Assembly (NCBI GenBank): GCA_000092065.1
Contig: CP000598.1
Strand: one strand, 5' to 3'
DNA length: 64,000 nt
From: Ostreococcus lucimarinus
Lineage: Eukaryota
Shown here: one piece after another, positions 1,839 through 28,350 of the stretch
Layout of the letters: each line of letters opens with the position of its first letter
How positions within the stretch are numbered: position 1 is the stretch's first letter
Notes under the pieces: generated by a model
Databases searched by the model: none
What the model was told of the DNA's origin: nothing
The model's input: only the letters and a program-made list of their open reading frames with translations
Translations under genes and position numbers: made by a program

Positions 1839-4800
1839 ATGATTTTAACACTCGTATCCATCGCTATATCCATGGGAAATACACTTGCGAGTGGTAGCAT
1901 AGCGCTCACCGACGCAACGTTTTCTACTGCGATCGCTAGTTGCCTCGAGGAGGCAGCGTCGGATGGCCTGTGTACTTCTTACGGCTTTGCAAGTGGGTTC
2001 GGAGCGATGCCTGATTGGGACACGGGCAATGTCACGAACATGGGTAGTGCATTTTCGTCTAAATACTACTTCAATGCATCCATCGGGAACTGGAACACGT
2101 CGCGAGTGACGTATATGGGTTCCATGTTTCAGTCTGCGTATTCGTTTAATCAGGACATCGGGAACTGGAACACGTCGCAGGTGACGAACATGTATTCCAT
2201 GTTTCAGTCTGCGAATTCGTTTAATCAGGACATCGGGAACTGGAACACGGCGCGAGTGACGTATATGGGTTCCATGTTTCAGTATGCATCTTCGTTTGAT
2301 CAGGACATCGGGGGCTGGAACACGTCGCAGGTGACGAACATGTATTCCATGTTTCAGTATGCGTCTTCGTTTGATCAGGATATCGGGAACTGGAACACGT
2401 CGCGAGTGACGTATATGTATTCCATGTTTCAGGGCGCATCTGCGTTTGATCAGGACATCGGGGGCTGGAACACGTCGCGAGTGACCAATATGGGTTCCAT
2501 GTTTCAGTATGCATCTTCGTTTGATCAGGACATCACAAACTGGAACACGTCGCGAGTGACCAATATGGGTTCCATGTTTCAGTATGCATCTTCGTTTGAT
2601 CAGGACATCACAAACTGGAACACGGCGCGAGTAACGTACATGACCAACATTTTCCAAAACGCGACGGCGTTTCAGGCGAAATATACATGTTCGACCGTTC
2701 AATCTGGACCCATCGCATCGTGTTCGCAGTGCGTTGCAAACTGTGCCGCTTGTAGTAACACTGCGTCGGGTGTTTGTAGTGTTTGCATGACTGGGTACAC
2801 ATTAGACGGAGGAATGTGTGCGGCACCCGCTGCGGCGCTCACCGACGCAACGTTTTCTACTGCGATCGCTAGTTGCCTCGAGGAGGCAGCGTCGGATGGC
2901 CTGTGTACTTCTTACGGCTTTGCAAGTGGGTTCGGAGCGATGCCTGATTGGGACACGGGCAATGTCACGAACATGGGTAGTGCATTTTCGTCTAAATACT
3001 ACTTCAATGCATCCATCGGGAACTGGAACACGTCGCGAGTGACGTATATGGGTTCCATGTTTCAGTCTGCGTATTCGTTTAATCAGGACATCGGGAACTG
3101 GAACACGTCGCAGGTGACGAACATGTATTCCATGTTTCAGTCTGCGAATTCGTTTAATCAGGACATCGGGAACTGGAACACGGCGCGAGTGACGTATATG
3201 GGTTCCATGTTTCAGTATGCATCTTCGTTTGATCAGGACATCGGGGGCTGGAACACGTCGCAGGTGACGAACATGTATTCCATGTTTCAGTATGCGTCTT
3301 CGTTTGATCAGGATATCGGGAACTGGAACACGTCGCGAGTGACGTATATGTATTCCATGTTTCAGGGCGCATCTGCGTTTGATCAGGACATCGGGGGCTG
3401 GAACACGTCGCGAGTGACCAATATGGGTTCCATGTTTCAGTATGCATCTTCGTTTGATCAGGACATCACAAACTGGAACACGTCGCGAGTGACCAATATG
3501 GGTTCCATGTTTCAGTATGCATCTTCGTTTGATCAGGACATCACAAACTGGAACACGGCGCGAGTAACGTACATGACCAACATTTTCCAAAACGCGACGG
3601 CGTTTCAGGCGAAATATACATGTTCGACCGTTCAATCTGGACCCATCGCATCGTGTCGATCGGGGTCACCATTTCAGAATTCGACCGAGTTGAAGCTTGC
3701 GGTCGACAGCTGTTTACTCGCGGATCCAACAGGAAATTGTGATTGCAGAAGTTCTCTGGTCGACTGCCGGGCGGCGAGCGGCGATTCAATATCGAAATGG
3801 GATACACGCTTCGTAACGAATATGAGCTCCTTGTTTGCAGGATCAGATCAATTTAACGCAGATTTAGGTGCTTGGAACACAAGTGCCGTTACTTCGATGT
3901 CGCACATGTTTCATGGAGCCGCTGCGTTCAACAAAGACATTAGTGGTACGTATAATGCGAATATCTTCGCGTGGGACGTGAGCGGCGTGACGGACATGAC
4001 TCGAATGTTCGAAGGCGCTAATAGTTTCGCTCAGGACATCAGCTCGTGGAACGTGGTGAACGTCGCGAGCATGGACAGTATGTTTTCGGGCGCAAACGCG
4101 TTCAACGCGCCCATCGGCAGTTGGAACACAGACGGCGTGACAAACATGTTTCAGATGTTCCACTCAGCACATGTGTTCGATCAACCAATCGGAAGCTGGA
4201 ACACGGAACGGGTGACGAGCATGCAGTGCATGTTCATGTATGCGCGTGAATTCAATCAGGATATCAGCTCCTGGAACACGGTCAACGTGGTAAATATGTG
4301 GGATATGTTTAATAGTGCGGATGCGTTCAACCAGAACATTGGGTTATGGAACACAGAGGAGGTGACGGATATGAGATACATGTTCTATAACGCGGGTGCG
4401 TTCAACCAGCCCATAGGGTCGTGGAACACCGCCAATGTCACGACCATGCGATCTATGTTTCAGGGCGCATCTGCGTTTAATCAGGACATCGGAAACTGGA
4501 ACACGACTTCTGTCACGGACATGTACAGCATGTTTGGTAGCGCGACGGCGTTCAATCAGAACATCACGGGATGGCACACGCCGAATACTGGTATTACTTG
4601 CGATTCATCGCAAACGGCGTGTGGTGATACAGGGTGTTTTGACATCGGTAATTGTGCTGCTGCGATGTTTTCCGGTGCGACAGCTTGGTTAGCGAGGTAT
4701 GCTCGCATGGATGGGAATGCGTCGAGCACCGATGGACCTCCGTCTCAGTGGGTCGGCCCGACACCATTTTTGAGTCGAGACGCTTTAGTCGCGGCGGTTG

Positions 4801-7800
4801 ATAATTGCTTGACCGAGGACGAGACGGGAAGTTGCGATTGCTCTGATTACGACGTCGATTGTGGCGCCGCCGTAAAGCTGCCGATCACGGAATGGGACGT
4901 GAGCCTCATCGTGGATATGAACGAGCTATTTAAGGCTCGAGCAGCTTTCAATCAACCGGTTGGTGTTTGGAACACTAGTAGCGTGACGGATATGAGCGGC
5001 ATGTTTGAGAGCGCATCCGCGTTTAACCAGCCCGTTGGTAACTGGAACACGGGTAGTGTGACGGACATGAGCGGCATGTTTGAGAGCGCATCCGCGTTTA
5101 ACCAGCCCATTGGTAACTGGGCCACGGGCAGTGTGGCGGATATGAGCGGGATGTTTGAGAGCGCATCTGAATTCAATCAGAATATTAGTAGCTGGTCAGT
5201 CGCTTCTGTGGTGAACATGCAATCCATGTTTTCCTCTGCTTCATCCTTCGAGCAAGACATCACTGGATGGATTTCAACTAGTGTCACGACGGACATGGCG
5301 ACGGACATGTTTCTCTCTGCGACAGCTTGGCTGCGAACATTCGCACGCACAGATGGCGAAGACACCCCCCATGGTCCACCATCCGATTGGGGCGAACCGT
5401 GTGGCAATGGGTGGTACGATGAGAAAGTTCAGGGGGAGAAGGAGGATGACTTTTGTGAGCCAAAAGTGAACGGGATTGAAGTGAAAGGATGTGCAGATGA
5501 CTGCAAAGTAAAAACGAACTGGAAGTGCGACAATGTCGACTTGCTACGCCCCGGTGATGACTTCGACAGCTACAATTGTACGTGCGACAACCCGGTGGGC
5601 ACGTATGCATCACCTAATCTTGATAATGATTGTGCTCGCACAGATTGCGTTTATGTCGAACGGTGTCTCGCTAACGGCCTAGGCTGTGCGCCCGGTGCCG
5701 GTGGAATGTGGGACGTGGGACGTGGAACGTGGGACGCGGTGAACGCATGCGGCAAGTGCTTGAGGGCCGCTGATATTGCCGAGCTCCCACTCAACGAACG
5801 AAGTAGGCACAACAAGGCTGGCTATTACAAGACTGGGCAGACGTGCACGGCTTGTCCTGCGACATCAGCCGCGGGACTTTTCGCTGCGGCTGCGGTTGTC
5901 GTCGTCCTCGCTTTTTGTGGTTTCAAAGCCTCTCAATTGATGGGCGCTCAAGCGACGAACAATTTGAAGAAAATTGTCGAGTCGCTGCAGTTCTTCTCTC
6001 TTTCGCTCAGTATGAGTATCAAGTGGCCTGGGCCCGTACTCAATCTCGGTAAATATTTGGAAGCTTTCACGTTCAGCATTGAGTTTCTACGACCCCAATG
6101 CGTCGCTGCGGGGCTGGATTGGCTCAATATATTTTTGTCCTCGGTGTTTGTCGTTCCCGCTCTCATCTTCATAATCATCGTCGTGAACAATAGACGGGCG
6201 AGGCACCGTTACAAAACAACGGTGCGCGCGATCGACAGTGAACGACACGAGGATGGCGAAACGGTCTACTGGATCGAGAAACCAGGGTTCCTGTGGGGTA
6301 CGCGGAGAGCTTACGAGTCCAAGGGCGGAGATAAGATTGTTCGTGAGTTGCAGCGCCAGTATCGGTTTCGAGCCGCGCTTCGATCTTTCGGCGTACTGTC
6401 ACTGACCATCCTGTACCTTCCCATCGTGCGTATGTGCCTTCAGTCATACGATTGCATAAAGATAGACGGCGTGGATGGGCTTCGATTGGAGCATGACATA
6501 GATATCCTCTGTGAAAGCGAAGGGCACGTGATCATCCAGGCCGCCGCCGCGGTGATGTTGGCCATTGTCGGTATCGGCATGCCAATTTACGTCGTTATGC
6601 AAGTTCGTAAGATCCGTTTGAGTGGTAAACTGGATGATCCGCAGACTATCGACTCGTATGGTCCGTTCTACGACGTCTACCGGCGCGAGGAGCTCACACA
6701 TGATCACAAATTGGAGATTGCGAGGATTCGACAAACCGCGGTCGAGTCGTCCTCATTTCGACGAGGCGAAGGCACGAGCGACGAACGTCCTTTCGATGCA
6801 GCAACTGATGATATTGCAGAAGAAATCGCAAATGAAGTCAGGGTCGACACGGAAGAAGATTCAAGCGACGTCGATCGTGTTGACGTCGAGGACGATAGTG
6901 GCACTCCACCACCTCAGAAAGTTTCATCCGGTCTCGGTAAGCTCGCTCGGGCGTTAACGATGACGAAGTCTGCTTTAGGCCGGACGACGTCAGCGAAAGC
7001 GCGCGAACGGGCACATCGAATGCACTGGAAGGACAGGTTCGCGCTTCACTACCTGGCCGTTGAACTAGTGCAGAAGAGTTGCGTCATTTTGACGACGTCT
7101 CCGATAGTGGCCGAAACCGCGGTGAGCGGTTGGGCTCTGGTTGTCGTACACTGGTTTACCGGCGCCTTCGTCTACGTGTGTCAGCCTTGGCGCATCATGA
7201 CGCTCGGCTTCGGCAAATACAAGGTGCGAAATTGCTTGAACAAAGTCGAGTCCTTGGCTGGATTTTTGCAGGGCGTGGGACCGTTCTTGGCAATGATCTT
7301 CCCTGTTCAGAGAAACGAGTTCGGTGAGGTGAAGCAAACTGTGACACTCTCAGCCATAACTGTCCTGCTGACCATCATAATCACCGGGCTGCTTTCTATT
7401 CGTATCATTGTTTTCGTCGGCGAACGCGTCGCCGTCAAACGAAAGAAGATGGATATCGACAAGGATCCCGAGAAATGCATGCAAAATGTTCACAAACAAC
7501 TGGTCAAGCTCGCAACCAACAGAGCGATTGTGAGCATGTTTGCTTTCAAGGCAGATTTCGACATTAAGCGCCGTAAAGCACGCGCGAGGCTGGAAGATAC
7601 TCGCCAAGCGATGTTATCGCGCATCGATATCTTGAAGTCACAACAGACCGACGAGGACCATTCCGATAAAATTACCGCGTTGTACGAAGTGGCGAATGAA
7701 ATGGCACACATCGTGAATACGATCGTACCCCAAGCACCGCCAACAGGTCCAAACGCAGAAGGGTGTATCGAATTGCTGGATGAACAACTGGCATCAATTC

Positions 7801-9368
7801 TCAAGGACGTCGACGTCCGAGCGCAGGCGAACGCGTTAGACGCTCCGAATTCTGCGGCGGTACATATCGTGATGAAGGTCCACGCGTTCGATACAATCAT
7901 ATGTCGACTTGACGAACATTTGCTCGAATTCGCGGCGGCAGAACGTGTGAGTGAGCTCGCCGAGCTGGGTCGAAGACACGCTGAATTACGACATACGCGA
8001 CGTTGTGTCGCGATAGGTTTCGGCGACGCAGAGCTTCGAGCTACTTTCGATGCGCTAAGATCGTGCATCGAGGCACTCCGCCATGCCGTTGAGAACGACG
8101 ACTTCGAAGCTGTATTCACAACTTTCAATGGTGGGAAGGAGATCATTGATTCTCACTTACGATGGTGTCGGGATCAATGTGAATTGTTCAAGAGCGCCGA
8201 GGACGAGCACCCCGATTTCCTCGAGGACGAGCCTCCACTGACGACCGAGTTTTTCAAGGCGACAGTCAAGGTGATACAATCCCATGAAAAGCAACTGTCT
8301 AAATTTAAATCGGAATGTATTCGTAACTGGCCCCCGCTTTTCAAGAACTTTGGCCGCGTCAAGTACATACAAGGCTTTGCTGAGCAACTTCAGAATCAAC
8401 TCCATCTCGATCTCAATGAAAGCACGCCGGAGGAGGCCAAGGCTGTTTTCGATCAGGTGTTGGCCTTCACAGATGGCTTCGCGCTTTGGTGCGGCGATTT
8501 AGTGGCACAGGTCGAAGGCTCAGATGTCTTCATCTTGTTTGAGCCAATCGCCCGCGCGATGGTGGAAAGCTTGAAAGCCATCAGAGCAGACGCTGAGTCG
8601 CAAAGTGCACTCGCGAGGCAAGCATTGAGTACGATAGATTATGTGGTGACGCAACGGGCGTTGGCCGCAACGACGCGGTCGGGCTTGCAGACAGCACTCG
8701 CGGATGGTACGTCTGCGCTTGAAGACCAGCTCGCCGCAGAAATTGCAGACATGGACGCTGCGAAGATTTCTCGAGAGACTACTTTCGAGACCGAAAAGAT
8801 GCGCACCGAGGAAGCTTTGAATACATTAGAGCAAGAGTTGGACGGTAGGCGAGCGGTTTTAGAGGACGACATTCGATCGCAACAGGACACTATCGCGCGG
8901 CTACAAAACTTGAAACGGGAAGAGGCCGCGGCATCGAGCTCTATAAACCCGTTGAAATGGGAGCGTTTCAGTCGAAGCACTGAGCTCGCCGAAGCTGTAA
9001 GTGCACTCCGTATGAGCAAACAAAACTTGAAGAATGAAGAGCTTGCAAATGAGAAGGCCCGCGGGGATGCGCGTAAGGCGGTTCATTCGTTGGAACGGGG
9101 CCTGAAAAAGGACCTGGTCGAATGTGACGTCCGAGCAAAGAAAATCCGAGACGATGTGGCAAAGGAGCTGAAGAAACAAACTATGGATGCTCAGAGGAAG
9201 ACACCCGAAGATGCTAAAGCCCATAAGGCTAGTCTGGCTTCCAGGCGCGCGGTGTTCCAGCAACAACGCGCCGCCGCTAAACTCATCGCGAGCGAAAGTA
9301 GAGAAGCTACGCGAATTCAAGCACAGCTTGCATACTACATGCGAAATTTAAAGGCGCGCGAATCGTGA
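1839..9368 (+). CDS. Giant surface-type protein: DUF285 (PF03382, BspA-type LRR) repeat ectodomain, Cys-rich stalk, multi-pass membrane region, long coiled-coil tail
   Basis: Uninterrupted ORF (track 1545..9368, non-ATG start). The in-frame ATG at 1839 precedes the signal-like peptide [19 protein letters not shown]. About 35 repeats of F..A..FNQDI..WNT..VT.M..MF fall in four blocks, each with a Cys cap (..AVDSCL..G.C..). Roughly six hydrophobic helices lie between 5860 and 7440, followed by an acidic linker and a heptad-rich tail. Confidence 0.85.
1902..3655 (+). repeat. Internal tandem duplication, period 933 bp (1902-2722 = 2835-3655)
   Basis: The two 821-bp arms read identically base for base wherever I compared them. 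Antisense ORFs at 1845..2702 and 2802..3635 have identical peptides. The arms are separated by a 112-bp Cys-rich linker ([25 protein letters not shown]). Confidence 0.9.
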
Positions 9369-9499: not shown

Positions 9500-9703
9500 G
9501 GCTCACAAATCAGGCAAGAGAAGACAGGTGCACGTGCAAACTCTCAGCGGAACGAGTTGGTCGTCTCGAAGATCTCGGTGTTTGGTGAGACCAAGCCGAC
9601 GCACAGGAGGAGCACTTCGATGCCTGGAGGTACAGAAGATGTAACTCATCTTAAGCGTACGACTATTCAGACCTTGGGGGTTCCGCTTAAGATTTCTTCG
9701 GAA
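9500..9703. repeat. Diverged 3'-flank module, paralogous to 21905-22140
   Basis: Alignable by eye at roughly three quarters identity: gacaggtgc..gcaaa..ggaagagcacttcg.tgcctg.gggtacagaagatgta..aagaccttgggg.ttc..gcttaagatttc. Confidence 0.7.
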
Positions 9704-10190
9704 TGGAATCTCTGAACGCAAGGCGTGGATGTACATTAAACCATGAACGAGGCGGGCCACGGTTCGATTTTTTGGATTACAAGTGTAGGTCTACTTTTAC
9801 GTTTCGTGGACTCTGCTTGAGTCGGCCGATGTCACCATGTCAGTCAGGTGCTTCGAGTGCACTAGAGACGTGACCGCCCATACACAGGACGTCGAGCTCG
9901 GCGTGCCTGATTTCACGACTCGGCGACCATGGTTTGAAACCGAAATGACCATCGGCTTCAGGCCCAGGCGCGGCCGCAATGCTACTTTAAACTTAATATT
10001 TTTTTTTTGAAAAAAGAGTAGTAAGAGTAATAAAAATAAACTTTTTTTTGTTTGAGTTGGGGCACCCCAACATGATAAAACCGCACATCGCGGCGAGCCG
10101 CGCGACGACGATCACTTCGGTCACATTTCCAGTCAGTGATTCTCGTCGTGTGATTCATCGTGTTTGACGTCGACGTTGATGTACCACATG
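9704..10190. mobile_element. 487-bp insertion flanked by 16-bp direct repeats (small non-autonomous element, type unknown)
   Basis: taagatttcttcggaa (9688-9703) and taagatctcttcagaa (10191-10206) flank it. The paralogous site at 22125-22140 has one copy and no insert. The first ~315 bp recur at 16396-16703. There is an internal T-run/A-run at 10008-10016. Confidence 0.6.
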
Positions 10191-10227
10191 TAAGATCTCT
10201 TCAGAACCAATCGTGTGAGTGAAGTGT

Positions 10228-10725
10228 TCAGGCCAAGTCGCGTAACTCATCTAGCGTAAATTGATACTTGTCGAGACTGCGCTTTGAAGGCAGCGTGCCA
10301 CGCGCTCGAGCATTCTTGAGGCACGTCTTACGCAGTATTCTTTTCGCGTGCTGCTTGTAATAATTGAGTTGTCTGTAGTTACCATCGCCGCCGTCACGCT
10401 TCGGCGTATATTGGGCTCTGCTGTAGGCTTGACTCTCGTCCACGTTCTCGTGACACGCGTGTTTCTGGCTGCGTCCAGCAGCTCGGGAGTTGAATAAGCC
10501 GTCGCGCTTCTCTCTCATGTATGCACTTTTACGTTGATGGAGCTCTCCAGCTGGAATGTCCTTTTCGAGAACTCTCACGTCCGCGTCGCCAAACGTGAAG
10601 ATTGGATGTCGTGCGTATTTATGCGAGGCAAGGCGCGCTCTGAGCGAACCTGTCGTCGATCCGATGTACGTTTTGTCACATTTCGCATTATCGCTAAACA
10701 TTTCGTACACGCACCCCGTAGGCAT
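10228..10725 (-). CDS. GIY-YIG family nuclease-like protein (copy 1)
   Basis: ATG verified. N-terminus MPTGCVYEMFSDNAKCDKTYIGSTTGSLRARLASHK fits the GIY-(10-11 aa)-YIG motif plus the conserved Arg, with downstream E and N residues (AYMREK, FNSR). Basic C-terminal tail. Confidence 0.6.
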   Translation of the reverse strand: MPTGCVYEMFSDNAKCDKTYIGSTTGSLRARLASHKYARHPIFTFGDADVRVLEKDIPAGELHQRKSAYMREKRDGLFNSRAAGRSQKHACHENVDESQAYSRAQYTPKRDGGDGNYRQLNYYKQHAKRILRKTCLKNARARGTLPSKRSLDKYQFTLDELRDLA

Positions 10726-10894
10726 TTGTCCTGGTTACCTATCCATCCCTAAGAAAATATTGTTGCCTCCTCCTGCGGTTTGCAGTCACATTCGAGAGAC
10801 CATAGGTACTCGTGTCGCTGCGTGGGGTGCAAGGTCCGGGGTGTAGATATCGAACCGCCTGATTTCACACCTGGACGTTCGTGATCCGACGAGA

Positions 10895-11085
10895 CCTGAC
10901 GAAATGACGAACTTGTTTTGTCGTCCCCAAATTCGTCAGCCCGTCGTTCGGTCACACTTTGTGTGTACCAATGATGAAAATGACGAAATGTTAAAATATT
11001 TTAATGTTTATTTTTATTTTAGATCTATGACAAGCAACAGTGTAGACCTTTATGAAAACAGTTCGTCATTCGTCATTTCGTCAGG
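10895..11085. repeat. Inverted repeat around an AT-rich spacer (also at 22837-23027)
   Basis: cctgacgaaatgacgaac (10895-10912) is the reverse complement of gttcgtcat(tcgtcat)ttcgtcagg (11061-11085). The arms resemble an internal piece of the 9704-10020 element (cctgatttcac, caaaccatggtc). Confidence 0.7.
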
Positions 11086-11150
11086 ATCCAAACCATGGTC
11101 TTTTCGGTGTCTTGTTGAGTCTTCATATTGCAAATGTACGAATCACAAAA

Positions 11151-11669
11151 TTAGTATGAACACCAGACGACCGCCGGCGCGAGCTCCGTCTCCCCCGTGT
11201 ACCCATTGTTCTTCAGCCACTCGAAGCACCCGTCGCGGTCAATTTCCCAATAGACGCCCTTCTCGTCCCTACCTTGCCTCAGGTGGTCCTCTTCCATTGG
11301 GATCCTGTGGCCCTTTTCCTTCTTGAAGAAGTCCTTGAGCTTATTGCCGACCTTCGTCGCGCTATCTTGTCCACGCGCAGCCGCTGGCAACCACGTCTGG
11401 TATTCGATGAAGATGTCACTGTTGCGGATTTTATTTCCAACCCACTTCTCAGGGAATTCAACAGTGACGCAATGCTCAAACCATCGAGTGAACTTGGGCA
11501 TGCAGCCACGCTTCATTTCCGAATACGCGTCGGTCGTAGGTCTCGTGCGCTCCACATGATAACCGGTACGGAGAAGTTTATATTTATTAATTAAAGACTC
11601 GCGCGTGTTGGCGCTAAATGATTTTATTGCTGCCGAGAGACTCAAGTTTGGCCGTCGTTTGAGTCGCAT
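11151..11669 (-). CDS. Hypothetical protein (copy 1); weak resemblance to the C-terminal region of D5/P4-type primase-helicases
   Basis: The track ORF 11151..11726 starts at TTG; the first ATG is at 11669 (MRLKRRPNLSL..). The segment FTRWFEHCV..IFIEYQTWL..KVGNKLKDFFKK..GVYWEIDRDGCFEWLKNNGY is the basis for the tentative similarity. Function is unverified. Confidence 0.45.
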   Translation of the reverse strand: MRLKRRPNLSLSAAIKSFSANTRESLINKYKLLRTGYHVERTRPTTDAYSEMKRGCMPKFTRWFEHCVTVEFPEKWVGNKIRNSDIFIEYQTWLPAAARGQDSATKVGNKLKDFFKKEKGHRIPMEEDHLRQGRDEKGVYWEIDRDGCFEWLKNNGYTGETELAPAVVWCSY

Positions 11670-11746
11670 CGATGGGTCGCGCCCGCCGATATAACGCCGG
11701 CGTTTCGGACACGATCTTGAAAACAAGCACTGGTTGACTTGATTGA

Positions 11747-14272
11747 TTAGGAAACCTTATCCGTGCCTTTTACGCTGAGCCCGGTCATGGACGGCTTCGT
11801 CGGCATGGTGAACGCGGTGTAGTCCGCCGCCGTGGGCACCGTGATGCTCGTGTCGTACGACATCCCGGAGCACGCCGACGCATCGGCGGGAGCAAGCATT
11901 TCGACACCACTTTCGAGTTTCAAGACGTACCGGTCGCCAGTCGATGGTTGTTTGAACGTGGTGCCATCGGGGATCAGGACATCCGGACGGCGATGGTAAC
12001 CATTGTTGTCGTCGCACTCCTCGTTGCCATACTGGTCGACCTCGGGCGCCGCGCGCGAACCAGTCATCGGATTGAAGCAAATGAACGGCGCGTCGCCCAA
12101 CCAACCGCCTTCGTAACGCACGTTGAGATTCACCCCGGAGTAGTCGGTACCGGATGGAGAGCGCAGCAACACGGCGTCCGTGGGTATCTTGCCTTGAAGC
12201 TGGAGAGGCGCATCCATGAACTTCTTTGACGCGGAGTCCGAAGGATCTTCGAGCCACGCCATGCCCTCCCAATTGCTTGAGCTCCACTCGTAGTGCACAT
12301 CCAATTTGTTGGGTTCCTCGCAAACGTCGGTAGTGGCGGTGCAACTCAAAGTGTCGAGGTTCGCAGGTGTAGCTTCGAAGAGAACCATATGAACTTCTCC
12401 CGAGTCAAAGAATGAGTTGGTTGGGTCCATTACGACTTCAGCGCCGAGGGTGCCGGAAACGTCTTCCTTCAACGAGCCGGTATCTTTGTCGAAGACGTAC
12501 TTTTTATAAGTGCTTCGAGCGTCGTTGTATCCGTTCGGCGAGCCGTAGAACTGGCTGTCGTGACTGCTCGCACTCGATAGCTTCGTCTGGTCGATACACC
12601 GCTCGCCGCACGTGAGTGCGAGGTGGCTGCTGAGCGACCCAGGGGGGACGGTTTGCGCGTCAGACACTTTGAAGTGCGTCAGGTTAAGCAAACTCGCAGA
12701 GCCTCGGCCGAAGATGCTTCCCCAGCAGCGTATGATTTGGTTGTCAATGTCAGCCATCGTGAGCGCACGCGGAGTCGTGATTGAGTTCGTGTTCAGCGAT
12801 CCACCGTTCCAAGTTCGCTTCGACGACAACACGAGTGCGTTCGCGTCGGAGTCATACCTGAACTTGACCTCAACTTCTGCAGCGTTAGTGTCATCCCAGA
12901 ACCAGCCTGTGATCGTCGCCCCTTGGTAGTCGCTTGCGCTTCGCACCGTCGCCGTGAACTTGTACAACACCCCGCGTGAGACTTTGAGCCTCTTGTTCAC
13001 GTTCAGTATCGGATCATCCCAATCGACAATTTCCTCTACTACGTTCCCGTCGGTGAACGCGGTTTGAGCGATAGTCTTCTCGGCGGTACTGAGCGCGGTG
13101 TCGGAAATGTAGTCGTAATCGGAAATGTAGAGATTGCCCGGATAGTGCAGATCAGCATTATACGTCTTGCCGTCGCTGCCTGTAGCCTGAAGATGCACGT
13201 AGCTTTGAAGGTTCACCTTCGCCCCGTTGCTGTCGTACGCGCCGTAGCGCTCACCGAAGAACGATCTGTTCTCGAGTTCATCGCAGAATGACTGCCCGTA
13301 CGCCTTCGTCTTGACGAGCGTAGCGGTAGTCACCAATTGACCCGCTTGTGTCGAACCATTATCAAAGTCGATGGTCTGGAAAGAGGCCTTCGTGATGTCG
13401 TTTTCTGCGCGCGATTTAGCACCCGCGGTGAATGAATTGCTGCCTCGTGTCACCTCTTCCCACCACGTGACCCCGGTCGCCGTGCAATCCGAATCCGCGT
13501 CGGTGGTTTCGCACTCGCGACGAACCACACCTTTGATGCGTTGGGACGCGGTCGAGCCAGTCGGCGATTGGTACGTAAAGGTAAAGTTTTTCACCAAGAT
13601 TTTGTCAGACTTGATGGCGACGTCATCGCGCTTGACGATCATTTCCGTGTCGATGTTCGGCATTTCTGGGGTATCGCTGAGGGCTACCCAGACGTTCGTC
13701 TTGAAATCACGGGTATCGCTCGCGTCGTCGATGTCTGGGCCCGTGGCGTTGACGACCCAACGGTACGTAACCTTACCCTTGATTCGGTCGCCGTCGCTGT
13801 TGTCACAGTGGAAAGGATCGATCTCAGCGATGTATGGGCCAGTGTTCAGGTTCGCCGTCCAGTTCACCGAGGCGACGTAGCAAAGAACCATGTTTGGTAT
13901 CTGGAAAATTTCGGTACTTACAGCGTCGACGAACGTCTCCGCCGGCGGCGCCGTGGCGTAGTCGGACGTCGAAGAGAACGAAGACACTTCGAGAGGCGTC
14001 ACCTCGACGAGCGAACGACCATCGATTCGAGACGAACCAGAAGACGTCGTCGAAACACCCTCTGACGGGATCATGGTGACTTTACGCGGCGTCAACGCCG
14101 CCTTGAGCGCGTTCGTCTTCGCCGCGCCCGACAGCCCGCTGACGGTGGTCGGGGTCGGGGCCGGGGCCGGGGTCGCGTCGTCATCCCTGAGCCCGATGCC
14201 GAGGCCGGTGCCAAGGGCGACCACCACGGCGGCGACACCAACGATCGCGATCGCAACGCCACGTCTCACCAT
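11747..14272 (-). CDS. 841-aa membrane-anchored protein with a large Cys-containing extracellular-type domain, unknown family (copy 1)
   Basis: ATG verified. N-terminal anchor MVRRGVAIAIVGVAAVVVALGTGLGIGL, a PAPAPTPTT linker, then a long uninterrupted ORF with a non-repetitive, protein-like sequence. Confidence 0.75.
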   Translation of the reverse strand: MVRRGVAIAIVGVAAVVVALGTGLGIGLRDDDATPAPAPTPTTVSGLSGAAKTNALKAALTPRKVTMIPSEGVSTTSSGSSRIDGRSLVEVTPLEVSSFSSTSDYATAPPAETFVDAVSTEIFQIPNMVLCYVASVNWTANLNTGPYIAEIDPFHCDNSDGDRIKGKVTYRWVVNATGPDIDDASDTRDFKTNVWVALSDTPEMPNIDTEMIVKRDDVAIKSDKILVKNFTFTYQSPTGSTASQRIKGVVRRECETTDADSDCTATGVTWWEEVTRGSNSFTAGAKSRAENDITKASFQTIDFDNGSTQAGQLVTTATLVKTKAYGQSFCDELENRSFFGERYGAYDSNGAKVNLQSYVHLQATGSDGKTYNADLHYPGNLYISDYDYISDTALSTAEKTIAQTAFTDGNVVEEIVDWDDPILNVNKRLKVSRGVLYKFTATVRSASDYQGATITGWFWDDTNAAEVEVKFRYDSDANALVLSSKRTWNGGSLNTNSITTPRALTMADIDNQIIRCWGSIFGRGSASLLNLTHFKVSDAQTVPPGSLSSHLALTCGERCIDQTKLSSASSHDSQFYGSPNGYNDARSTYKKYVFDKDTGSLKEDVSGTLGAEVVMDPTNSFFDSGEVHMVLFEATPANLDTLSCTATTDVCEEPNKLDVHYEWSSSNWEGMAWLEDPSDSASKKFMDAPLQLQGKIPTDAVLLRSPSGTDYSGVNLNVRYEGGWLGDAPFICFNPMTGSRAAPEVDQYGNEECDDNNGYHRRPDVLIPDGTTFKQPSTGDRYVLKLESGVEMLAPADASACSGMSYDTSITVPTAADYTAFTMPTKPSMTGLSVKGTDKVS

Positions 14273-14409
14273 CGTCGCGCGTTGAAATGCGGCGACGACA
14301 AGTGGCGACGGTGACGCGATCTGCCCGCACGCAATTCAATTCCTTCGGGTCACCTTATCTTTTGGAGCCCCCGGAAACGCGACTGTTTACCAATACGATG
14401 GTTCCCGGG

Positions 14410-14685
14410 TATTGATTACTGGGCCTGTTGGCGCCCCGCGGGTGTGTGTGTGCCAGCCCGTAGGGTTTAAGGTTTAGGATCCGAAATATGGAGCCTCGCT
14501 ATTAAGCCGGGGATCCTCCGCGGGCACGCGCCCCCGCGGGCGTGTGTGTTTTCGCGGTCGGTCGGACGGGAAGCCTGTTGGCGCCCCACGGGTTTGTGTG
14601 TCGGTCCTTAGCGTTTGGGGTTTAGTATCGGACATACGGAGCCTCACTATTTAGCGGTATGACCACATATATTAATTGATTTATA
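14410..14685. repeat. Degenerate telomere-like / subtelomere-like block (1.5 units); related block at 17466-17640
   Basis: Shared unit: ggggatcctccgc..ccgcgggcgtgtg..ttcgcggtcggtcggacg..ccgttggcgccccgcgggtttgtgtg..agggtttag.ggttaggatcggacatatggagcctcactatttagc. Confidence 0.8.
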
Positions 14686-14759
14686 CCATTCATCCCGCGC
14701 ATAAAATCGGGTAGATTACTGTACAGTAATCTACCCGACTTTATGCGCGGGATGAATGG
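14686..14759. repeat. 74-bp near-perfect palindrome (36 of 37 arm positions pair)
   Basis: ccattcatcccgcgcataaaatcgggtagattactgta|tacagtaatctacccgactttatgcgcgggatgaatgg; centre ctgtacag. Weaker arm similarity extends about 25 bp on each side. Confidence 0.9.
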
Positions 14760-14936
14760 CATAAATCCCATAGTATATGGGGACCGGACCGGCGGGACGT
14801 GTGATTTTTTACCGTAGGGGTCATGATTGGTCGTTCGGGGGTACTCGTATGAAATAATGAAACACCATACTTTTATTTACATTTTGGTTTATTAAAAAAA
14901 CCCGTACGTGCATTTACTACAGAATTGACCACTTTT

Positions 14937-15065
14937 CGCGCGGGTTTCACCAGAAAGCTTCAAAAATCGTGCCTTTTCTAAAACTCAATTTTCGCTAGGG
15001 TTTAGCGCCCCCGGTTTTCCGAGGATGCGGGCAGATCTCGCCGTCGGCGCCACTCGTCGACGACC
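14937..15065 (+). promoter_or_regulatory. Telo-box 5' module, copy B
   Basis: AGGGTTTAG at 14997-15005, gccactcgtcgacg at 15049-15062, upstream ATG at 15025, main ATG at 15066 in the context gaccATGG. Confidence 0.6.
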
Positions 15066-16245: not shown

Positions 16246-16395
16246 GCGCTCTTCGAGTTCGTCGATGCGGCGTTGTTTAGCGTCGTTCGCGCTCTCTACA
16301 TCGGCGCGACATAGAATAACGATAATCTATATCTGCTATATCTGCTTAATATTCTGCTTAAGATTTCGGCACCCTCGCTTAAGATCTCTTCAGAA

Positions 16396-16703
16396 TGGAA
16401 TCTCTGAATGCAAGGCGTGGATGTACATTAAACCATGAACGGACCACGGTTCGATTTTTTTTATTACAAGTGTAGGTCTACTTTTACGTTTGGTGGACTC
16501 CGCTTGAGTCGGCCGATGTCACCGTGTCAGGTGTTCAGAGTGCACTAGAGACGTGACCGCCGATACACAGGGCGTCGAGCTCGGCGTGCCTGATTTCACG
16601 ACTCGGCGACCATGATTTGAAACCGAAATGACCATCGGCTTCAGGCCCAGGCGCGGCCGCAATGCTACTTTAAACTTAATATTTTTTTTTTGAAAAAAGA
16701 GTA
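16396..16703. mobile_element. Second copy of the 9704-10020 element core
   Basis: It starts immediately after cttaagatctcttcagaa (16378-16395), the same sequence as the flanking repeat at 9688-9703. It is collinear up to the T-run/A-run gaaaaaagagta, and no matching right-hand repeat is seen. Confidence 0.6.
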
Positions 16704-16756
16704 CTATAGTACTTTTGGTGTTTAAACGTGTTCGTGATATGATTGATAGTCCGTGA

Positions 16757-17465: not shown

Positions 17466-17640
17466 GTGAGGCCCGGAGATCCGGGGATCCTCCGCAGCCC
17501 CGCGGGCGTGTGCCTGGCGTGTGCCCTTCGCGGTCGGTCGGACGAGGGGCCCGTTGGCGCCCCGCGGGTTTGTGTGCCAGCCCCAGGGTTTAGGGGTTAG
17601 GATCGGACATATGGAACCTCACTAATTAGCCGCATGACCT
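17466..17640. repeat. Degenerate telomere-like block, homologous to 14515-14685
   Basis: See 14410-14685. Contains cagccccagggtttaggggttaggatcggacatatggaacctcactaattagc. Confidence 0.8.
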
Positions 17641-17838
17641 CATACATTAAGTTATTTATATCTAGTCATCGCGCGAAATGGCGTGGGTAAATTACCGTAC
17701 TAGGGTTTCCGTAAATAAAATACGTACCGAAAATAATGAATTAATTTACACGGGCGTGCCACGACGTCGTCGCACGCGCTCGTGAAAATTTGGTTGACGG
17801 CTTGGATTCGAGATTTTGGGGAGGTAAAATTCGGCCAA

Positions 17839-18009: not shown

Positions 18010-18176
18010 TAGGGTTTAGAAATTAGGGTTTAGACGTCAAAAATCGCTCGGGTTCCATCAGAAACGTGTCAAAAACGGGCCTTTTCTGAAACTCGATTTT
18101 TGCTAGGGTTTAGCGCCCCCGGTTTTCCGAGGATGCGGGCAGAGCTCGCCGTCGGAGCCACTCGTCGCCGCACACG
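18010..18176 (+). promoter_or_regulatory. Telo-box 5' module, copy C
   Basis: tagggtttagaaattagggtttagac at 18010-18035, core with AGGGTTTAG at 18105-18113, and a 15-codon uORF (18133-18180) whose TGA overlaps the main ATG (ATGA). Confidence 0.6.
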
Positions 18177-19740: not shown

Positions 19741-19758
19741 GACGCATTACATTAAATC

Positions 19759-19946
19759 TAGGGTTTAGAAATTAGGGTTTAGACATCAAAAATCGCCGAG
19801 GTTCCATCAGAAAGTTGTCAAAAACGTGGCTTTTCTAAAACTCGATTTTTACTAGGGTTTAGCGACCTCCGGTTTTTCGGCGGAGGAATTGCGTGCGGGC
19901 AGATCTCGTCGTTGTCGCCACTCGTCGACGCGGCGATGCTCTCAAC
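19759..19946 (+). promoter_or_regulatory. Telo-box 5' module, copy D
   Basis: tagggtttagaaattagggtttagac at 19759-19784, core AGGGTTTAG at 19853-19861, gccactcgtcgacg at 19917-19930. The upstream ATG of copies B and C is GTG here. Confidence 0.6.
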
Positions 19947-20767
19947 ATGGCAAAGGTGAAGATAATGCTAATATTGTCGATGGTGTTGATACTGCGCATG
20001 CCGAGCGCACTCGCAGGCGCACTCACACACGCACTCCTCCGTGTGGGTGGTCCACGTGTAAGGCAAGCTGTCGAAAAAGGGATGAAACAAGGCATTATGG
20101 ATTCGTTTCCAGGAGGCGTCCAGGACCTCCTCGCATACTTGCACCGCCACAGAGAGGACGAAATCAAACAGGAGTTTGGGTGCATGGCGCTCATGATCAT
20201 GTGCCGGGAAAACACTGAGAACAGACGCATCGCCGGAGAGCAGGGCGCGATCCAGGCCGTCGTGAACGCCTTGAACCGCCACAGAGAGAACAAGGAAGTG
20301 CAGAGGGACGGACACATGGCGCTCGTGATCATGTGCGAGGACAACACCGAGAACAGACGCATCGCCGGAGAGCAGGGCGCGATCCAGGCCGTCGTGGACG
20401 CCTTGAACCGCCACAGAGGGAACAGGGAAGTGCAGAGGGACGGACAACTGGCGCTCGCGATCATGTGCAAGGACAACACTGAGAACAGACGCATCGCCGG
20501 AGAGCAGGGCGCGATCCAGACCGTCGTGGACGCCTTGAACCGCCACAGAGGGAACAGGGAAGTGCAGAGGGACGGACAACTGGCGCTCGCGATCATGTGC
20601 AAGGACAACACTGAGAACAGACGCATCGCCGGAGAGCAGGGCGCGATCCAGACCGTCGTGGACGCCTTGAACCGCCACAGAGGGAACAAGGAAGTCCAGG
20701 CGAACGGGCACATGGCGCTCGCGAGCATGTGCATTAACAACACTGAGAACAGACGCATCGTAGACGC
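19947..20767 (+). CDS. ARM/HEAT-like repeat protein, probable exon 1 (the ORF itself continues to the stop at 20825)
   Basis: ATG at 19947 (MAKVKIMLILSMVLILRMPSALAG). About 4.5 tandem 44-aa units NTENRRIAGEQGAIQAVVDALNRHRGNREVQRDGQLALAIMCKD, which match the armadillo-repeat pattern. Confidence 0.6.
20110..20760 (+). repeat. 132-bp (44-codon) tandem repeat array inside the ARM-like gene
   Basis: Unit starts (aacac.gagaac) are at 20211, 20343, 20475, 20607 and 20739. Units 20343-20474 and 20475-20606 differ at 2 nt. Confidence 0.9.
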
Positions 20768-20817: not shown

Positions 20818-21832
20818 AGCGTTGAAGGACAGCGGGCGCAGTGATGATGCGCAAATAAACGCACTGTACGCGATTGCAAACGAGATGGCGCACGCTGTGA
20901 ACATGATCTCGATTCAAGGTGTCGCTGAAGGCCCGGGCGTTGAAGAACGAGTAAAACACACACAAGATTTCCTACAGCAACTTTTGTCGGACGTCGACAT
21001 CAAACTTGAGATCGAAGAAAAGCAAAACGCCGAGGCTCTGCGTGTGGTATTGCGAGTGCACGCGTATGGTCGTGCCATGAAAATTATCGAGGATCACATG
21101 CTAGAATATGCGCGCGCTGAACAAGTGGAGGAGCTGGCCGTGCTCGGACAAGAATCTGCGGCACTGTTAGAAGAACAAAACCTCCTTTCCATGGGTTTTG
21201 GCGTCAAGGAGCTGAATATGTCGATACTGGCAATCGACGCGGAGCATTTCACTGTGCACCTAGAGAAAGCTACTTCCCTGGACGAAGTCGGCAGTGCTGT
21301 GGCCATTCTCAACGCCGTCAATTCCATTGCAGTCCGTCATCTCGAGTGGAGAGATGCGAGCGTTGCAACTTTTAGCCACCTTGAAACCGAAGAGTCCATT
21401 GGTATTGAAGTCAAAATCAACAGGGACGTACTATATTCTGCTGCGATGCTTCTGAAAGATCACGAATCCCAGCTGAACCAAGAACTGGCGAGGCGCGCGC
21501 GCGAATGGAAGCTTCTGTTTAAGAATTTTGGAAAAGTGAAATTCAACCAGACGCTTGAAGAAATGGTTCAGGTGGAGCTCACCTCGCCTGAAGGCGCGGA
21601 CGCTGATTTAACACGCCGTGCTAAAAAATTTGTGGATTGGTGCGTGGAATCTTCACAGCAGCTGAGCCGAGGGGAGTTTAACCAGCGTCTTCCTGGGATT
21701 ACGGAAACGGCATATATCAGCCTAAAATCCCTCGCACAGAAGTCTGCCAGTTCGCTCGTTAAGATCGCACAAAAAACAGCTGCATCGAGGCGTAGCAAAA
21801 CAAAGACGTCAATATTCGGGTTTGCGCGCTAA
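20818..21832 (+). CDS. Domain paralogous to residues encoded at ~7640-8520 of the giant gene; probable exon 2 of the ARM gene, or a 5'-truncated relic
   Basis: INALYAIANEMAHAVNMI vs [53 protein letters not shown] vs [46 protein letters not shown] vs [11 protein letters not shown]. There is no ATG at its 5' end. Confidence 0.5.
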
Positions 21833-22124: not shown

Positions 22125-22161
22125 TAAGATTTCTCCAGAACGAATCGTGTGAGTGAAGTGG

Positions 22162-23611: not shown

Positions 23612-23688
23612 CGATGGGTCGCGCCCGCCGATATAACGCCGGCGTTTCGGACACGATCTTGAAAACAAGCACTGGTTGACTTGATTGA

Positions 23689-28270: not shown

Positions 28271-28350
28271 CCGCGCCGGCGACGCCTGATCGTCTCGGCG
28301 CGCGATCGTCGCGGCATGGGACGCGTTGGAGGGCGGGGGTCGGGACGCGT

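Follow-up and report, generated by a model that had tools for sequence, protein, structure and literature searches.

The window analysed here comprises 64,000 nucleotides of Ostreococcus lucimarinus CCE9901 and belongs to its chromosome 18, known as the small outlier chromosome (SOC). Proteins of the window give exact matches to this strain, on a record of 149,386 bp; the published description of the chromosome gives 149 kb and 53% GC (PMC3491373). SOCs are described as small and hypervariable, and O. lucimarinus is a marine alga. A block that occurs twice in the window is assembled from four parts: a GIY-YIG cassette of 590 bp, a spacer, the 393-bp end of a primase-helicase (DUF5906) gene and an orphan gene of 841 aa. 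Older modules, a tail domain and a flank F, lie on its left.

8229–8492 (+), tail domain, copy-1 side: C-terminal region of a 2607-aa DUF285 protein gene (1545–9368), with a DUF285 Pfam match
9537–9696, flank module F, copy-1 side: 77.8% identical to 21949–22112 and 68.8% to 11005–11148 of contig L012
10191–10776 (−), GIY-YIG cassette, copy 1: ORF 10228–10725 (165 aa, ABP00649), with 51 bp upstream and 37 bp downstream
10777–11150 (−), spacer, copy 1, between helicase remnant and cassette: collinear with L012 9576–9949; copy-2 counterpart 22720–23092
11151–11543 (−), helicase-gene 3′ remnant, copy 1: last 131 codons of a primase-polymerase/SF3-helicase (DUF5906) gene, with the substitutions 11370, 11396 and 11505
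11747–14272 (−), 841-aa orphan gene, copy 1 (ABP00650): N-terminal membrane anchor at residues 5–28, 13 Cys, predicted to be β-rich
14273–14406 (−), duplicated 134 bp upstream of the 841-aa gene: copy-2 counterpart 26221–26353
14407–14509, native upstream flank of the 841-aa gene: in copy 1 only, and common to at least 15 environmental contigs as well as L017 and L026
21407–21643 (+), tail domain, copy-2 side: within a 336-aa ORF (20822–21832) upstream of copy 2
21949–22124, flank module F, copy-2 side: 82.5% identical to L012 11037–11151; adjoins the cassette
22125–22719 (−), GIY-YIG cassette, copy 2: ORF 22162–22659 (165 aa, ABP00653)
23093–23485 (−), helicase-gene 3′ remnant, copy 2: counterpart of the copy-1 remnant
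23689–26220 (−), 843-aa allele, copy 2 (ABP00655): differs from copy 1 only by one more Ala-Pro-coding hexamer
26092–26120, CGGGGC microsatellite: copy 2 has 4.8 units and copy 1 (14149–14172) one fewer; source of the 6-bp indel
26354–26708, GC-rich (72%) right-junction sequence of copy 2: a non-homologous junction

Self-blastn aligns 10191–14406 with 22125–26353 at 98.8% identity over 4230 columns, with 35 mismatches and 3 gaps (E = 0), so that the two copies are collinear base for base, as the initial annotation had it. The substitutions are clustered: 30 of them fall in the 586 bp of 10191–10776 (94.9% identity), against five in the other 3629 bp (Fisher p = 1.7e-21). Within the 498-bp GIY-YIG ORF there are 24 (95.2%). 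An 8-bp indel follows position 10766 (copy-2 bases 22701–22708), and to its right, up to 14367, substitutions occur only at 11370, 11396 and 11505. Over 11506–14367 (2862 bp) there is none, and the sole change is one more CGGGGC unit in copy 2 (26098–26103), located in the hexanucleotide microsatellite. The final 40 bp hold a 1-bp indel (14368) and substitutions at 14376 and 14378. Homology ends abruptly at 14406/26353; beyond this point similarity is at the random level (57 mismatches in 89 positions), without a diverged fringe. From left to right, identity between the copies rises in steps, from about 78% in the flank to 94.9%, 99.6% and 100%.

These figures agree with the initial annotation, which had announced about 95% identity across the GIY-YIG gene, the 8-bp indel, two or three substitutions at 11.3–11.5 kb, some 2.9 kb free of differences bar one hexamer unit, small changes in the last 40 bp and a non-uniform distribution overall. 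It had also described the flank as about three quarters identical, as the 77.8% listed above confirms, and the upstream genes as related only as proteins. Indeed, the C-terminal region of the DUF285 protein and the 336-aa ORF share 30% identity over 89 aa (blastp, E = 4e-8), at the protein level only.

Module borders and the cassette family

Module borders were defined from sequences outside this strain, L012 and the "b"-type cassettes. Positions 11543–10170 match L012 9183–10556 at 97.1%, over the 3′ end of a 733-aa DUF5906 gene, the spacer and the GIY-YIG gene, and conserved core genes adjoin this match. At this source locus the GIY-YIG gene lies 425 nt downstream of the Prim-Pol/DUF5906 (SF3 helicase) gene, and in six long contigs the pair is found at a fixed place beside core genes. 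The counterpart of flank F (L012 11005–11148) belongs to the same helicase-linked locus, about 480 bp downstream of the GIY-YIG gene. The copy-1 helicase remnant is 97.1% identical to L012 9183–9575, with 130 of 131 aa conserved and a dN/dS of 0.048; by these values it has not decayed.

The copy-1 cassette is of the helicase-linked "a" lineage, identical to L012 over 10701–10776, with L011 and L020 as nearest relatives. The copy-2 cassette shows "b"-lineage states at its two ends only, and its middle matches no sampled sequence: over 10261–10700 it has at least 15 differences from everything sampled. It carries seven private variants, as opposed to none in the spacer and helicase remnant, and five of the six that fall in coding sequence are nonsynonymous. 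b-type cassettes (L013 2643–3232) match copy 2 only over 22130–22719. The last difference between the copies in the cassette zone is at 22718, and the homology with the second lineage ends one base further, at 22719. The three later substitutions all lie within helicase-derived homology (up to 11543); all those of 10777–14367 fall in the 767 bp that are homologous to the helicase locus (p = 0.0097). Each identity step coincides with a module border set independently from other loci.

It might be imagined that the 95% zone is simply older sequence that drifted in place. This possibility was rejected. About one third of the cassette differences between the copies, together with the 8-bp indel, are states shared with the second cassette lineage elsewhere; wild haplotypes with identical 841-aa genes show the same step between them; and the step lies a single base away from where cassette-family homology ends. 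The steps are therefore module borders of a dispersed repeat family rather than ends of conversion tracts between two old blocks.

Nucleotide diversity falls from 4.7% in the cassette to 2.5% in the spacer and 2.0% across the helicase remnant. The four-gamete test is failed by 213 of 903 site pairs (Rmin 10). L018 and L020 have identical 841-aa genes and cassettes that differ by 5.6%. These patterns show that the cassette family recombines. The environmental contigs were chosen by exact 841-aa protein identity, which biases the apparent invariance of the gene, and short-read metagenome contigs may be chimeric. As in gene conversion within dispersed families, the cassette displays mosaic sites, four-gamete failures and nearest-neighbour switching. 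As in interlocus gene conversion and concerted evolution, the truncated helicase remnant varies almost purely synonymously, as if imported from functional genes. Unlike gene conversion, the long identical tract has no diverged homology on its right; therefore the main event is a copy or insertion and not a conversion between pre-existing blocks.

Junctions and the origin of copy 2

In L018, L020, L021, L026, L017 and more than ten short contigs, the flanks of copy 1 extend leftward as far as 10170 and rightward as far as 14509. The right junction of copy 2 was absent from the approximately 30 environmental contigs fetched, where that of copy 1 is common. From these contexts, copy 1 (10170–14509) is the native arrangement. 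On the left of copy 2, flank F meets the cassette where about 500 bp have been deleted between two direct repeats of about 17 bp (AAGATTTCTTCAGAA). Because this junction recurs in other marine contigs, L045 and L051, the copy-2 cassette and its left flank form an older resident unit; in L051 it occurs without the rest of the block. Tail domain, flank and GIY-YIG cassette are old paralogous units. Where the initial annotation proposed an old unit followed by a recent event, the age of these three modules and the recent sharing of the right part stand; nothing indicates that the old duplication took in the whole block, 841-aa gene included, homology having no diverged fringe at the right end. 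Its second proposal, a recent re-duplication nested in an old one, was roughly right and is close to what the evidence supports.

At 14368–14406, as at 11370–11543, copy 2 carries the commonest wild allele of the copy-1 locus, so that its right end is a copy and not an old fringe. Between 10777 and 11369 the two copies are identical (0/593), and both are at least 11 substitutions and one indel away from every other sampled haplotype. Since the copies share this private haplotype right of the cassette, copying is less than about 1 million generations old; the lack of differences over 3417 bp (the 593 bp above, and no substitution in 11544–14367) gives a bound of 0.45–1.0 million generations.

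The best model, in which we place slightly better than even confidence, is a one-ended, homology-primed copying from copy 1 into the copy-2 site. The anatomy of the block, its module borders, the recency of its right part, the older origin of the copy-2 left side and the recombination of the family are observed in the sequences; what we infer is that a break occurred, which way synthesis ran and which pathway made the repair. In copy 1, a fragment captured from a standard chromosome (393-bp helicase end, 374-bp spacer, 165-aa GIY-YIG gene) is fused downstream of the 841-aa gene. The copy-2 site would already have held an older independent unit, flank F with a cassette of the other lineage. A break at the right edge of this resident cassette would then have been mended with copy 1 as template, less than about 1 million generations ago, the cassette being the only homology for repair. 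Synthesis would have started exactly at the end of cassette homology (10777 in copy 1, 22720 in copy 2) and covered 3.63 kb, taking in the spacer, the helicase remnant and the 841-aa gene with 134 bp of its upstream sequence, and the new end would have been joined without homology at 26353/26354. Such copying would be of the break-induced replication or synthesis-dependent type. The step at about 78% would represent the old flank, and that at 95% the old cassette, made mosaic by exchange among many dispersed cassette copies; the 99.6% step would mark the stretch still open to conversion from helicase-locus copies, and the 100% step the one for which no other donor exists.

Break-induced replication and synthesis-dependent strand annealing may leave one homologous and one end-joined junction. 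As in these pathways, the switch from divergent to identical sequence is sharp and lies at the limit of shared homology, and a long unidirectional copied tract ends in a non-homologous far junction; the pathway is read here from sequence alone. Right of the cassette, copy 2 differs from the copy 1 of this strain at six sites (11370, 11396, 11505, 14368, 14376 and 14378), so that the copying model needs a supplement: either small conversions or allelic recombination that altered copy 1 afterwards, or a donor on a homologous chromosome. An empty copy-2 site, with the resident cassette directly abutting 26354, was not found; the pre-event state is therefore a reconstruction. Finally, L019 has a third right junction at 14397, only 9 bp away, which hints at a preferred breakpoint, beyond what the copying model explains.

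Other scenarios may be envisaged. In a first one, rather unlikely in our opinion, the whole 4.2-kb block (10191–14406) would have been duplicated recently, the copy-2 cassette and small copy-1 patches being overwritten afterwards by ectopic conversion from the cassette family. The abundant recombination in the family (213/903 failures, Rmin 10), the third of the differences shared with b-type cassettes, the very different cassettes of wild haplotypes with identical 841-aa genes and the restriction of differences right of the cassette to places where helicase-locus donors exist would all fit. However, the copy-2 left junction and flank F pre-exist in L045 and L051; therefore the left end was not made by fresh duplication from 10191. 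Moreover, the b-like state at 22718 lies one base inside the end of b-homology, and a tract needing two-sided homology could hardly include it. The private variants of the copy-2 cassette, mostly nonsynonymous, also imply either a long independent history or an unsampled donor.

The conversion reading of the initial annotation, an old duplication of flank, cassette and whole block with the right 3.6 kb kept identical by recent interlocus gene conversion, is not favoured and seems to us improbable. It would account for a flank (78%) and a cassette (95%) clearly older than the rest, and the last 39 bp, with two substitutions and one indel, could resemble a diverged fringe. But this copy-2 fringe is the majority wild copy-1 allele, so it reflects allelic variation and not old paralog divergence, and no diverged homology is found beyond 14406/26353 (57/89 mismatches). 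In addition, the left end of the identical tract lies within one base of the end of cassette homology, which is not expected between fully homologous blocks, and the copy-2 right junction is missing from the roughly 30 environmental contigs that commonly show the copy-1 junction.

It is very improbable that the block is a transposable element or another self-mobile unit inserted twice, even though related pieces occur in many genomic contexts, the block adjoins standard-chromosome genes in L026 and carries a GIY-YIG nuclease with a replicon-type helicase remnant, and a weakly integrase-like 392-aa ORF lies beside it in some wild haplotypes. The block has no terminal inverted or direct repeats and no target-site duplication, encodes neither transposase nor reverse transcriptase and gave no Rfam ribozyme match; its helicase gene is truncated, its ends vary with context (right 14397, 14406, 14509 and 14729; left 10170 and 10191), and the copy-2 left junction occurs without the rest of the block in L051. 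An assembly artefact, a single locus entered twice in the reference, is hardly credible: the breaking of short-read metagenome contigs at the edges of the identical tract does point to a repeat that is hard to assemble, but breaks at paralog-specific sites are expected of two co-existing copies, the copies have different unique flanks on both sides as well as private markers and differ by 30 substitutions and three indels, and an independent assembly (Logan SRR23274481, L052) reproduces copy 2 at 100% identity across 23456–26319 (2864 bp), 6-bp insertion included.

Relation to known systems

The predicted fold of the GIY-YIG protein is closest to the catalytic domain of I-TevI (1ln0, probability 0.99, TM 0.58); sequence support is weak, with a Pfam E-value of 0.008, below threshold, and the catalytic-glutamate motif REGEFI of distant relatives would read RKSAYM in this clade. 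Like the genes of free-standing GIY-YIG homing endonucleases (I-TevI, the Seg genes of phage T4), its gene is small and free-standing, with an I-TevI-like predicted fold, in a discrete cassette of about 590 bp present in several contexts. Homing leaves the nuclease gene itself as the freshly copied, identical segment; in this block the gene belongs to the diverged segment.

The combination of a primase-helicase with a GIY-YIG domain is known in virophages and polinton-like elements, as in Sputnik V13, OLV25 and the Tlr1 helicase-GIY-YIG fusion (PMC3671162), and the source locus similarly pairs a Prim-Pol/DUF5906 protein with a GIY-YIG gene. Unlike in those elements, this pair sits at a fixed place beside core genes, and of the helicase gene the window retains just a remnant of 131 codons. 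The surroundings of the pair showed no sign of a capsid, packaging ATPase, protease or integrase, nor of terminal repeats, and the viral contig collection yielded no relatives.

The SOCs of Mamiellales are structurally hypervariable through internal duplications and translocations from standard chromosomes, as for chromosome 19 of O. tauri (PMC5498103, PMC5082852) and in O. mediterraneus (PMC13390643). Like published SOCs, the window has a neighbourhood of glycosyltransferases, FkbM methyltransferases and sugar-nucleotide enzymes, an intrachromosomal duplication and a segment nearly identical to a standard-chromosome locus; its copy-2 right junction is non-homologous, like those of published SOC fusions. 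Published cases consist mainly of tandem arrays of about 2 kb, large inverted repeats or events of at least 10 kb, in contrast to the single 3.6-kb copy found here, which a dispersed nuclease-gene cassette of 590 bp anchors on one side. A keyword search of four SOC papers returned no mention of such a cassette serving as a portable homology patch. Duplications and translocations on the SOC being already documented, the 3.6-kb copying represents a clear case of a known type of rearrangement rather than a new system.

Anatomy of the duplicated block

Copy 1 (10191-14406) and copy 2 (22125-26353) lie on one chromosome as near-identical, collinear segments, each with distinct flanks. The collinearity noted in the initial annotation is borne out by self-comparison of the window, which gives 98.8% identity over 4230 columns. 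The stepwise rise in identity that it described from left to right is recovered in the base-level alignment: 30 substitutions fall within the 586 bp of 10191-10776, the 8-bp indel placed near 10770 lies after position 10766, the two or three substitutions reported near 11.3-11.5 kb are exactly three (11370, 11396 and 11505), and none follows over 11506-14367, where the sole change is an extra CGGGGC unit of copy 2 inside a hexamer microsatellite. The final 40 bp of the block hold two substitutions and a 1-bp indel, so that the ~2.9 kb said to be free of differences, apart from one hexamer unit and changes in the last 40 bp, is as described. Homology then ends abruptly at 14406/26353 (57/89 mismatches past that point). 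Evenly spread differences, which the initial annotation held would speak against its reading, are far from what is observed (30/586 versus 5/3629 substitutions, Fisher p = 1.7e-21). To the left, the flank said to be about three quarters identical is 78% identical (9537-9696 versus 21949-22112), and the upstream genes, described as related at the protein level only, match at 30% over 89 aa (E = 4e-8).

All block genes are on the minus strand. The parts, in copy 1 coordinates, are as follows.

11747-14272, minus strand: 841-aa gene (843 aa in copy 2); membrane anchor at the N-terminus, 13 cysteines, without recognised domain
11151-11726, minus strand: 191-aa "ORF", not a separate gene
11543-10170, minus strand: helicase-derived fragment, 97.1% identical to 9183-10556 of L012, a helicase-linked locus of the source type

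The 841-aa protein belongs to a family of only 16 clusters, made of marine metagenome proteins; its AlphaFold model, with 14 homologues, has a mean pLDDT of 41.8 and is unfit for fold search. The origin of the remainder is indicated by six long marine contigs: there, conserved core genes come after the terminal 393 bp of a gene for a 733-aa protein, the spacer and a 165-aa GIY-YIG gene located 425 nt downstream. DUF5906 is present in the 733-aa protein, which matches the phage "DNA primase" family PHROG 1156 (E = 1e-30) as well as the PDB "Primase" chain 6k9c (E = 2e-12), and whose relatives combine Prim-Pol and DUF5906, some also with VirE domains. It is thus a primase-polymerase/SF3-helicase of the selfish-replicon type. 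Such helicases are paired with GIY-YIG nucleases in virophages and in the Tlr1 element (PMC3671162). From sequence comparison, the block is then the 841-aa gene fused to a captured piece of a standard-chromosome locus. The helicase remnant shares 130 of 131 amino acids with L012, its differences being almost purely synonymous (dN/dS 0.048); its variation may have come from genes that are still functional, or its truncation may be recent.

Other loci carry further pieces of this gene. In L035 (5987-6182), L036 (3316-3511) and L037 (5987-6529), fragments of it lie inverted downstream of the GIY-YIG cassette, at a distance of ~1.4 kb, and in L034 and L037 the helicase tail is truncated elsewhere, at the window equivalent of 11293, which would reflect repeated breakage of the primase-helicase gene. 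A 423-aa protein of its 90%-identity cluster (P0136) is recorded on a 104,430,999-bp contig, far exceeding any Ostreococcus chromosome, which points to a contaminated large eukaryotic assembly or else to transfer. Relatives of the GIY-YIG and helicase proteins were absent from scans of viral contigs with each of them. The block had no match in the phage DNA collection, a tRNA scan found none, and no Rfam family, ribozymes included, was detected on it.

Pfam and PHROG searches of all block ORFs returned nothing beyond a GIY-YIG match (E = 0.008, 16.9 bits) below the cut-off of 22.6. The 165-aa protein is nevertheless predicted to adopt the GIY-YIG alpha/beta fold with its GIY and YIG strands: the AlphaFold model (pLDDT 70.5) has as best Foldseek matches the I-TevI catalytic domain (probability 0.99, E = 0.035), UvrC and Slx1. 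The VYE and YIG motifs are kept, and Y7, Y20, R31, H35 and N79 are conserved. A profile search of the family against PDB sequences gave no meaningful match. Motif comparison indicates that distant homologues have a Glu in REGEFI where Lys occupies the same position in RKSAYM in the clade of this protein. The position would be that of I-TevI E75; the catalytic glutamate may therefore be missing from this clade. The two cassette genes differ with a dN/dS of 0.22, and diversifying selection on the nuclease gene is rejected on values of 0.22-0.53.

Cassette lineages and module borders

The nuclease gene is part of a ~590-bp cassette (10191-10776 in copy 1, 22125-22719 in copy 2) with two lineages, one helicase-linked and a second, here called b. 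In L013, L015 and L016, b cassettes adjoin a 364-aa gene, and they match copy 2 over 22130-22719 only. In direct alignment, the final difference between the copies on this side is at 22718 and b homology ends at 22719. Homology to the helicase locus ends at 11543, and the three remaining substitutions all fall inside this limit, as against 0 in the following 2824 bp (p = 0.0097). The identity steps coincide with module borders defined at other loci. On the left, the junction of copy 2 with the old flanking module corresponds to a ~500-bp deletion between two ~17-bp direct repeats, both found in L012; the environmental contigs L045 and L051 share this junction. No cassette-free allele was found at any of several contexts where the cassette has discrete ends.

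Within the cassette, copy 2 has b-lineage states and copy 1 helicase-linked states at 10201-10243 and at 10714-10776, the 8-bp indel included. Seven variants in the middle of the copy 2 cassette occur nowhere else, and five of the six coding ones are nonsynonymous. Across the family, the cassette has a nucleotide diversity of 4.7%, compared with 2.5% for the spacer and 2.0% for the helicase remnant. The four-gamete test is failed by 213 of the cassette's 903 informative site pairs (Rmin 10), and the nearest neighbour changes five times along the block. From these patterns, the zone of 95% identity is a mosaic rather than the result of simple drift. The wild haplotypes L018 and L020 have 841-aa genes with 0/2729 differences, a value to be read with the caveat that they were chosen for exact identity of the 841-aa protein, and cassettes that are 5.6% different and also differ by the 8-bp indel. 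Strong purifying selection behind the identity of the 841-aa gene is rejected, since the lack of differences extends to synonymous and non-coding sites.

A ~400-bp module with an AT-rich tract is present at 9684-10090, between the old flanking module and copy 1, and again at 16352-16706 (93-94% identical). It also follows the GIY-YIG cassette in L030, L031, L033 and L042, even beside a full helicase gene, so that the left flank of copy 1 was probably captured together with the cassette.

Age and origin of the second copy

The two copies do not differ anywhere in 10777-11369 (0/593), and in the nearest-neighbour analysis every other sampled haplotype is separated from both by no fewer than 11 substitutions and an indel, which argues that one was copied from the other within the CCE9901 lineage. 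At 11370-11543 and 14368-14406, copy 2 has the commonest wild allele of the copy 1 locus and copy 1 has minority states. With Mamiellophyceae mutation rates of 4.4-9.8e-10 per site per generation (PMC5455958), 0 differences in 3417 bp would place the event less than 0.45-1.0 million generations ago; by point mutation alone, the 5.1% difference of the cassette would take 26-58 million generations. The flanks of copy 1 continue in many environmental contigs, left to 10170 and right to 14509; the right junction of copy 2, where ...GATGGTTCCC meets TTTTTTCGG, is absent from these contigs. Sequence comparison thus shows the right part to be truly recent, with copy 1 as its likely source.

Beyond the right end of the block are ~85-bp units (14421-14509, 14573-14655 and 17547-17632) and a palindrome at 14663-14782, a 105-bp near-perfect inverted repeat. 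Such units also lie beside cassette fragments in L041, L051 and L034/L037, and could represent either miniature mobile elements or modules prone to recombination. In several wild haplotypes (L018 446-1624; also L021, L022 and L023), a 392-aa ORF, which belongs to a 90% cluster of 174 members, is situated ~2.5 kb from the block. It weakly matches phage integrase families around an HLLRHT motif (PHROG 1, E = 0.006) and may encode a tyrosine recombinase; in CCE9901, only a 26-codon remnant is present, between the copies (17754-17831).

The mechanism that fits best, favoured with moderate confidence, is the following. An older cassette unit would have already been resident at the copy 2 site, where its right edge was broken. 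The broken end, ...CTCCTCCTGTG in the resident cassette, would have invaded copy 1 with the cassette as the sole homology. Copying would have started at the limit of homology and extended over 3.63 kb, and the new end would have been captured by non-homologous joining to the sequence that begins with TTTTTTCGGTCGCG at 26354. Such homology-primed copying would explain why identity switches at the cassette edge, why the left junction existed beforehand, why the copy 2 cassette has a private history and why the right end is non-homologous. It needs later small conversions, allelic recombination or a donor homologue to account for the six differences right of the cassette. Copying alone does not explain L019, which has a third right junction only 9 bp earlier; the idea that its right flank is that of copy 2 was rejected, the local score of 44, versus a shuffle maximum of 32, corresponding to no real homology.

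A possible alternative is that the whole block was duplicated and that the cassette was replaced afterwards. One of the two readings proposed initially was that the right part of an old block was kept identical by recent conversion, the other being a recent re-duplication nested in an old one. The mosaicism, with its five nearest-neighbour switches and its four-gamete failures in the cassette, speaks for interlocus conversion, but this history is disfavoured because the diverged homology that it would leave beyond 14406 is absent: the identical tract has a diverged homologous border on its left only and ends abruptly on the right. In addition, the last 39 bp of copy 2 are a common wild allele of the copy 1 locus. 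A transposable element is likewise disfavoured, as terminal repeats are absent, the junctions have no target-site duplication, the ends vary among contexts, and the block ORFs encode no transposase, integrase or reverse transcriptase according to Pfam and PHROG. An assembly artefact is disfavoured by the distinct flanks, by private markers and by an independent assembly (L052, Logan SRR23274481) identical to copy 2 over 2864 bp.

Unequal crossing-over within the cassette as the sole event is rejected, because copy 2 is b-like to within one base of the end of homology and because the region between the copies is not repeated after copy 2. A Penelope-like retroelement (GIY-YIG plus a long ORF) is rejected as well, the 841-aa protein having no reverse transcriptase and Rfam finding no hammerhead. 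As for a polinton-like or virophage-like element, only the primase-helicase and GIY-YIG genes were found, the called genes around them having no capsid, packaging ATPase or protease Pfam families.

Finally, a bolder view would consider the primase-helicase and GIY-YIG pair as an uncharacterised, still active selfish module of Ostreococcus nuclear genomes, whose nuclease breaks the edges of its own dispersed cassettes; these would be programmed seeds from which adjacent genes are copied, translocated and duplicated, both to the small outlier chromosome (SOC) and inside it. Taken jointly, these two proposals are very improbable. The identity step exactly at the cassette edge and the three differing right-hand junctions at most 9 bp apart are compatible with targeted breakage.

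Chromosomal setting and significance

Chromosome 18 of O. lucimarinus CCE9901, a 149,386-bp record to which exact protein matches assign the window, is the SOC of this species (149 kb, 53% GC; PMC3491373). SOCs are hypervariable, being built by duplications inside them and by segments translocated from standard chromosomes, and are linked to virus resistance (PMC5498103; PMC5082852; PMC13390643). The window has 49-56% GC along most of its length, and its genes are eukaryotic: a nucleotide-sugar transporter, a CXXC/Tudor DNA methylase, GT17 and STELLO glycosyltransferases, FkbM methyltransferases and a 2607-aa DUF285 protein. Window 10170-11543 is 97% identical to a DUF5906/GIY-YIG locus adjoining core genes (contigs of 0.09-1.24 Mb), and a chromosome of 708,927 bp carries the third GIY-YIG paralog of CCE9901 (P0020). 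NSF-like and TCP1-epsilon genes are found ~1 kb away from the block in L026; as the CCE9901 orthologue of this TCP1-epsilon is on a 982,987-bp chromosome, the unit has moved between chromosomes. With its SOC location, its two collinear copies and its standard-chromosome-like sequence, the locus fits segmental duplication and translocation on a Mamiellales SOC.

Other parts of the window are also repetitive. Dispersed repeats with 90-98% identity (57820-58187 and 61458-61825; 55862-56076 and 61243-61464; 799-875 and 28348-28426) show patchwork duplication to be general on the SOC. Within the DUF285 gene (1545-9368), an 822-bp segment made of 75-bp periodic repeats (85-89% identity) is repeated at 100%, 933 bp apart (1902-2723 and 2835-3656), and looks like the product of a very recent duplication inside this giant surface-repeat gene. 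A ~125-bp module recurs at 14936-15059, 18044-18167 and 19793-19930, each time directly upstream of one of three successive genes on the plus strand (371 aa, 347 aa and 310/336-aa ORFs), and resembles a promoter or 5' leader common to them. Next to it is a 14-nt tandem repeat, AAATCTAGGGTTTAG x2.3 (19754-19787), containing the plant-type telomere/telo-box-like GGGTTTA. The 310-aa ORF has armadillo-like repeats encoded by a 132-bp tandem repeat (20183-20760; 4.4 copies, 94% identity) and abuts the 336-aa ORF in a different frame (20822-20825), which suggests one gene with an intron or a frameshift. The cytosine-5 DNA methylase, fused with mono-CXXC and Tudor-like domains (34624-37266), sits in a 62-68% GC island set in an SOC of otherwise roughly 50% GC.

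It is established that SOCs undergo duplications and translocations from standard chromosomes, and both gene copies are publicly annotated. The new details are the base-level anatomy, the dispersed nuclease-gene cassette as a homology patch and the helicase-gene remnant; the locus does not amount to a system of a new type. It provides a base-resolution example of SOC rearrangement, with one homologous and one non-homologous junction, in which a short dispersed cassette, common to standard chromosomes, can supply the homology. It also calls for caution, because an identity gradient between paralogs need not mean age or a conversion tract and can trace the borders of nested repeat families. These algae are abundant at sea, and the SOC is thought to underlie their rapid resistance to giant viruses. 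If the improbable selfish module did exist, it would be an endogenous driver of the SOC hypervariability linked to this resistance. Whatever the mechanism, the duplicated cargo is a membrane-anchored, Cys-rich orphan protein, a surface component of the kind that could matter for virus contact.
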